From the NCBI RefSeq assembly GCF_000026545.1, contig NC_011601.1: a stretch of 64,000 nucleotides of DNA; one strand, given 5' to 3'. Position 1 is the first letter of the stretch. Every line of letters begins with the position of its first letter. The notes below the pieces were generated by a model. It was not told the DNA's origin, made no database searches, and saw only the letters and a program-made list of their open reading frames with translations. This document shows, piece after piece, positions 51,835-52,269 of the stretch. Source of the stretch: Escherichia coli O127:H6 str. E2348/69 (lineage in GTDB: Bacteria > Pseudomonadota > Gammaproteobacteria > Enterobacterales > Enterobacteriaceae). The translations under genes were made by a program, and so were the position numbers.

Positions 51835-52269
51835 GTGAAAAATACCAGCGATCTGTTCAATGAAATTATTCCATTGGGTCGCTTAATCCATATGGTTAAT
51901 CAGAAGAAAGATCGCCTGCTTAACGAGTATCTGTCTCCGCTGGATATTACCGCGGCACAGTTTAAGGTGCTCTGCTCTATCCGCTGCGCGGCGTGTATTA
52001 CTCCGGTTGAACTGAAAAAAGTGTTGTCGGTCGACCTGGGGGCACTGACCCGTATGCTGGATCGCCTGGTCTGTAAAGGCTGGGTGGAAAGGTTGCCGAA
52101 CCCGAATGATAAGCGCGGCGTACTGGTAAAACTTACCACCAGCGGCGCGGCAATATGTGAACAATGCCATCAATTAGTTGGCCAGGACCTGCATCAAGAA
52201 TTAACAAAAAACCTGACGGCGGACGAAGTGGCAACACTTGAGCATTTGCTTAAGAAAGTCCTGCCGTAA
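51835..52269 (+). CDS. marR: multiple antibiotic resistance repressor MarR (144 aa, GTG start), carrying S3N, G103S, Y137H relative to K-12
   Basis: [23 protein letters not shown]...; residues 3, 103 and 137 read N, S, H. Confidence 0.9.

Follow-up and report, generated by a model that had tools for sequence, protein, structure and literature searches.

A close described relative of the locus considered here is the mar locus of Escherichia coli K-12, whose repressor MarR (b1530; PDB 1JGS, 3VOE, and 5H3R) has 144 aa and whose marC gene lies divergent from marO and the marRAB operon, with MarR sites I and II, a -35/-10 promoter, and a marbox in between. Two natural alleles of the protein are also on record: WP_000843419.1, a common E. 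coli form found in CFT073 and O157:H7, which has S103 and H137 together with S3, and WP_000799375.1, found in E2348/69 and in the E. coli type strain ATCC 11775, which has N3 instead. Genuine mar-derepressing genotypes map to the same locus and comprise MarR truncations, wHTH substitutions, and marO site mutations. Indeed, frameshifts, deletions, and changes at A70, L33, and G15 of marR have been reported in selected or clinical strains (PMC8597741; PMC11753663).

The window analyzed here is a 64,000-nucleotide stretch of the genome of E. coli O127:H6 str. E2348/69 (NC_011601.1), and all 64,000 of its bases are identical to the reverse complement of positions 2,434,717-2,498,716 in another assembly of this strain (NZ_CP059840.2). 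E2348/69 is the prototype EPEC O127:H6 strain. It belongs to phylogroup B2 (PMC4464170). The window contains none of the loci used in MLST or Clermont schemes, and its phylogroup was assigned through this exact 64-kb match. Within the window, marR (51835-52269, plus strand) begins with GTG, ends with TAA, and encodes 144 aa identical to WP_000799375.1. The product matches the NCBIfam equivalog NF008565 over its full length at 319 bits (cut-off, 240), with residues 1-144 falling on profile positions 1-144, and contains the PF01047 wHTH domain at residues 38-96 (E = 1.8e-18), a stretch that is unchanged relative to K-12.

End-to-end alignment with wild-type K-12 MarR (PDB 3VOE) revealed mismatches solely at residues 3 (S>N), 103 (G>S), and 137 (Y>H), giving 141 identities in 144 positions (98%) with C80 kept. 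Direct comparison with the marR gene of MG1655 (b1530, NC_000913.3) again yielded S3N, G103S, and Y137H alone at the protein level, along with five synonymous differences at codons 62, 63, 69, 92, and 120. Codon 3 (51841-51843, plus strand) is AAT for Asn where K-12 has AGT for Ser, owing to a G>A change at 51842; codon 103 (52141-52143) is AGC for Ser in place of GGC for Gly (52141 G>A); and codon 137 (52243-52245) is CAT for His in place of TAT for Tyr (52243 T>C). The original prediction had named exactly these three residues by comparison with a K-12 sequence. Both the substitutions and the reference sequence it used proved correct against 3VOE and in the base-by-base comparison with MG1655, and K-12 itself has none of N3, S103, and H137. 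The polymorphisms have been described before, and RefSeq lists the exact protein as a non-redundant entry that the E. coli type strain has as well. The idea that the differences stem from faulty sequencing or assembly merits no credence, as identical protein and DNA were recovered from multiple independent assemblies of E2348/69 and from hundreds of further genomes; sequencing noise is excluded by the presence of WP_000799375.1 in ATCC 11775 and of the N3 allele in 280 complete genomes.

The positions of the three residues were considered in terms of natural variability, using 31 distinct full-length Enterobacteriaceae MarR sequences aligned over 144 columns. No variation is seen in 80 of the 144 columns. 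Variability is highest at position 103 (G, S, H, E, or D), with position 137 (Y, H, L, or Q) in fifth place and position 3 (S or N) in 20th. All three lie outside the Pfam winged-helix core (38-96), and residue 3 also precedes the crystallized chain of 1JGS, which covers residues 7-144. With three non-synonymous and five synonymous differences, the dN/dS ratio between the window and K-12 marR is 0.18, and the gene is under ordinary purifying selection, with the three sites being places where change is tolerated.

The surrounding locus has the arrangement expected of mar, with marC (50958-51623, minus strand) and marRAB diverging from marO, two MarR sites, a marbox, and a sigma-70 promoter; the gene order is that of K-12 and of the E2348/69 annotation. 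From 51723 to 51841, an interval that spans the marbox, the -35 element, site I, the -10 element, site II, and the GTG start, there are zero differences from K-12. The site for the activators MarA, SoxS, and Rob at 51736-51755, which we take to be the marbox on the basis of established knowledge, lies upstream of the marRAB promoter at 51772-51800 (-35 TTGACT, 51772-51777; -10 TATTAT, 51795-51800). The site I core TTGCCTGGGCAA (51783-51794) is located between the -35 and -10 elements, and the site II core TTGCCAGGGCAA (51818-51829) overlaps the marR ribosome-binding site; all of these elements are on the plus strand and the same as in K-12. The earlier impression of an intact marO is thereby upheld for its functional elements. 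For the marC-marR intergenic region as a whole it holds in part: the operator and promoter portion is unchanged, but three bases do differ from K-12 (51650 T, 51705 A, and 51722 C), all located 5' of the marbox and clear of the two MarR sites. The T at 51650 is common only to the three B2 strains compared, while at 51705 and 51722 it is K-12 that deviates. Position 51722 lies about 14 bp upstream of the marbox, presumably close to the accessory site for Fis reported by Martin and Rosner.

Downstream of marR, the window differs from K-12 by one added base in the marR-marA spacer, a G at 52272 that is missing in K-12, O157:H7, and the swine isolate EL361. Outgroups carry a base there, so the shorter spacer is the derived form. 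The marA gene (52290-52673, plus strand) encodes S127N relative to K-12 (codon 52668-52670, 52669 G>A), and its product, WP_000091198.1, also occurs in CFT073 and ATCC 11775; S127N is missing from all other compared sequences. The marB gene (52705-52923, plus strand) has amino acid changes relative to K-12 at codons 5, 10, 33, 40, and 44, and its product, WP_000803537.1, is likewise found in CFT073 and ATCC 11775. A published strain with S3N also carries MarA S127N together with MarB S5L, A10T, A33G, and H44Q, which is the haplotype of the window, and no effect of S3N is shown in that study (PMC8597741).

A derepressing marR allele would be recognized by a frameshift, a stop, a deletion, or a change in the wHTH core or the operator. 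Here, the reading frame is full length, residues 38-96 and positions 51723-51841 are unchanged, and the window has none of the features of the genuine derepressing genotypes mentioned above, nor any further change in marR or marO that would alter repression. Because the three residues occupy loosely constrained positions outside the DNA-binding core and marO is unchanged, MarR should still bind and repress. The MarR dimer would be expected to bind sites I and II, to repress marRAB, and to respond to the usual inducers as in K-12.

A genotype of a different kind was encountered in EL361 (L102, NZ_CP193497.1). In this isolate, a G>A change falls within the site I core (TTGCCTGGGCAA to TTGCCTAGGCAA, corresponding to window position 51789), and MarR carries A105V (window position 52148). 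Unlike the window, EL361 is plausibly a candidate for genuine mar derepression, judging from its sequence.

Other authors have viewed these substitutions as Mar-type resistance mutations, which would weaken MarR repression, raise MarA and AcrAB-TolC, and thereby contribute to fluoroquinolone and tetracycline resistance. Variant-model databases and some whole-genome surveys report them as such: Y137H and G103S (and S3N) appear as resistance mutations taken from CARD-RGI output, without functional tests (PMC11298459; PMC9961978), and another paper lists the substitutions as resistance-associated, also without functional tests (PMC7546912). Against this, G103S/Y137H showed no association with levofloxacin MIC, being present in isolates at 0.016-16 ug/mL and hence in isolates at the low end of that range, unlinked to the level of resistance (PMC4317672). 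Moreover, a passage of PMC11753663 states, second-hand for Oethinger et al. 1998, that G103S and Y137H do not affect repressor activity.

Allele counts in 5,426 complete E. coli genomes, a set of complete RefSeq assemblies and thus a biased sample, also bear on this question. Concatenated 33-mers centered on each SNP were searched with megablast, which needs a 28-base exact word, so that a central mismatch abolishes a piece and every piece is specific to one allele. Of the 5,426 genomes, 4,224 carried N3, S103, or H137, singly or in combination, and 280 (5.2%) carried all three. The three K-12 alleles were jointly present in 1,178 genomes (21.7%), including K-12, E. coli C, and a B-strain derivative. 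S103 and H137 without N3 accounted for approximately 72% (3,915-3,944); the two estimates of this class lie 29 genomes apart because of extra nearby SNPs in genomes such as EL361. When 60 genomes spaced evenly across the ranking were inspected, 55 had S103 and H137 without N3, among them CFT073, O157:H7, O111, and O104. The G103/Y137 combination of K-12 is the minority form in E. coli.

Since S103 and H137 occur in approximately 78% of the 5,426 genomes and in other Escherichia species, they cannot be acquired resistance mutations. A derepressing allele would be expected to be derived and rare in wild-type or susceptible populations; the alleles at issue are found in 4,224 genomes, in other Escherichia, and in isolates with a levofloxacin MIC of 0.016 ug/mL. 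The three residues also sit outside the wHTH core at highly variable positions, next to an unchanged operator. A role as resistance mutations is therefore exceedingly improbable, and the resistance calls in the three papers amount to over-calling in light of the population data. The warning in the original prediction that the substitutions belong to natural variation and should not be read as derepressing mutations is supported.

The direction of change was read from outgroups. These were gathered by a one-genome-per-species contig scan with the two-site marO pattern, which also returned many unrelated GC-rich chance matches and missed E. fergusonii, typical S. enterica, and the main E. coli representative; the sequences used were from E. 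albertii, E. whittamii, Escherichia sp. E1V33, one divergent 'E. coli', Citrobacter, Salmonella arizonae, and others. S103 and H137 are present in the E. albertii type strain, there with N3, and in E. whittamii, Escherichia sp. E1V33, and the divergent 'E. coli' SCPM-O-B-8794, each with S3. Farther away, Citrobacter has S3, H103, and either H or Y at 137, Salmonella arizonae has S3, E103, and Y137, and Raoultella has N or S at residue 3, D103, and H137. In the table of variable sites, K-12 is the single sequence set apart from the remaining E. coli and from every outgroup at 52141 and 52243, and it likewise stands alone at 51705, 51722, 52020 (except for E. whittamii), 52023, 52194, and 52836. 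Parsimony applied to 52141 and 52243 places S103G and H137Y on the K-12-type lineage and not on that of the window. S103/H137, as found in the window, is the ancestral state in Escherichia and the majority state in E. coli, and G103/Y137 is a derived state to which the K-12-type lineage switched.

One database record in this comparison deserves separate mention. A contig labeled 'MAG: Caldithrix sp. CR04bin15' (SMXE01000224.1) carries a marRAB that equals K-12 at all 26 sites at which K-12 and the window differ, indicating contamination by K-12-type E. coli.

The history of residue 3 is distinct and is tied to the B2 haplotype. In the 1,300-bp segment that runs from the start of marC through the stop of marB (51624-52923), the window differs from CFT073 solely at 51842, the S3N SNP. 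In the same region it differs from ATCC 11775 at 2 positions, both synonymous and in marA, from E2348/69 at 0, from K-12 at 26, and from O157:H7 at 35. Such close agreement with B2 reference strains throughout the region identifies a phylogroup B2 marRAB haplotype, and the MarA, MarB, and MarC proteins are the same in E2348/69, CFT073, and ATCC 11775. The alignment with K-12 and B2 reference strains that had been proposed as a check thus yields three differing residues in the former case and the S3N base alone in the case of CFT073. CFT073 and O157:H7 share one MarR protein, although the window haplotype, a single base from that of CFT073, is 35 sites away from that of O157:H7.

Approximately 1,038 records contain a B2-like mar region at 99% identity or above, and N3 is present in roughly a quarter of them. 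Carriers include UTI89, 536, NRG 857C, ATCC 11775, 'ST95-32', 'EcST1193', and APEC O2:K1 strains, while CFT073 lacks it; apart from E2348/69, we take these named strains to be members of B2 on established knowledge. When searched alone, the N3 33-mer was recovered from 280 of the 5,426 genomes, a number equal to that of the full triad, so within this set N3 never occurs without S103 and H137. These data suggest that S3N is a single derived transition (AGT>AAT) on the B2 marRAB haplotype, passed to a subset of B2 lineages and always accompanied by S103/H137, with polarity assigned by parsimony over a handful of outgroups. S3N is the only lineage-informative change of the three, and it marks just part of B2. 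The description of the triad as lineage markers can be retained to that extent, but not for G103S and Y137H, which mark no particular lineage given their presence in approximately 78% of the 5,426 genomes and in three other Escherichia species.

Beyond E. coli, N3 is also found in E. albertii, Raoultella, Atlantibacter, and Pluralibacter. E. albertii NBRC 107761 (locus L004, 6848-7279) has N3, S103, and H137 exactly as in the window, in a mar locus that differs at 159 of approximately 1,300 positions. The occurrence of N3 in so divergent a locus and in other genera indicates that S/N exchange at residue 3 is recurrent; N3 in B2 is derived, yet it lies at a freely varying position.

Could S3N nevertheless be a subtle functional variant? 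The N-terminal residue, or the G>A change at mRNA base +8, might shift the level or stability of MarR and with it the mar threshold in B2 sublineages. Such a role would fit a derived, lineage-restricted allele that is fixed in successful B2 lineages, including UTI89, 536, ATCC 11775, ST95-32, and EcST1193, and that has counterparts of independent origin in E. albertii, Raoultella, Atlantibacter, and Pluralibacter. Folding of the marR start region with G or A at 51842 offers a further hint, as the A allele leaves the region slightly less structured: its ensemble free energy is 0.4-1.1 kcal/mol less negative, and the mean unpaired probability in a 63-nt construct moves from 0.56 (G) to 0.60 (A). 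A change of this size is within the noise of such predictions, however, and it was rejected as a sign of an S3N effect. Furthermore, residue 3 is outside the crystallized 1JGS chain, family members interchange S and N freely here, and the SNP at 51842 lies beyond the site II core, which ends at 51829. The literature on S3N is associative and reports no phenotype. Taken together, a subtle effect of this kind is quite unlikely, and the corresponding claim that S3N is not neutral, and may adjust the amount of MarR and thereby the threshold for inducing the mar regulon in B2 lineages via the N-terminus or an A-richer mRNA start, is very doubtful.

The region just beyond marB also varies among strains. 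A 6-phospho-beta-glucosidase gene directly follows marB in CFT073, ATCC 11775, and EL361 (2356-3135 in compared locus L099, 2655-3434 in L100, and 2253-3033 in L102), while the window, K-12, and O157:H7 continue straight to eamA; the window counterpart is 52924-52953. Presence or absence of this gene does not track with the N3 allele.

Several other features were noted elsewhere in the window. A complete Lamassu anti-phage system is encoded at 33259-36663 on the plus strand, consisting of LmuA (33259-34359; PADLOC PDLC03852, E = 2e-133), LmuC (34349-34834; E = 1.9e-54), and LmuB (34837-36663; E = 6.4e-176); in RefSeq, these genes are annotated as 'ABC-three component system' proteins and an AAA ATPase. 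It is followed on the same strand by a decayed type I-A retron (37529-38061), in which an msr RNA (Rfam RF00170, 79.9 bits; 37529-37593) precedes a reverse transcriptase fragment of 133 aa (37660-38061) that matches positions 1-123 of the 308-position RT_I-A profile, the N-terminal third. Remnants of an integrase and of hypothetical genes extend 3' of the retron to approximately 38574 and adjoin hipBA (38682-40270, minus strand). The Lamassu system, the retron remnant, and the integrase remnant form a small defence island beside hipBA.

Farther along, the Hfq-binding sRNA STnc560 (RF01407, 281.9 bits) is found at 55451-55664 on the minus strand, adjoining the small-protein genes mgtS and mgtT. 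Near the start of the window, dosC, which encodes a diguanylate cyclase and lies upstream of dosP, is annotated in E2348/69 as a 165-nt pseudogene fragment (approximately 5608-5772), and dosP is intact.

Returning to the mar locus, the marR of the window is in all likelihood a fully functional wild-type allele of phylogroup B2, and its apparent triad of substitutions arises solely from the use of K-12 as the reference. Caution is warranted, as variant-model resistance pipelines still flag MarR G103S and Y137H, and sometimes S3N, as ciprofloxacin or tetracycline resistance mutations. Flagging G103S/Y137H tells nothing about resistance, because these residues are the normal ancestral state of the species and K-12 is the outlier. 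The mar locus of the window should thus be annotated as wild type, with N3 as a marker of a B2 subset being the sole usable information.
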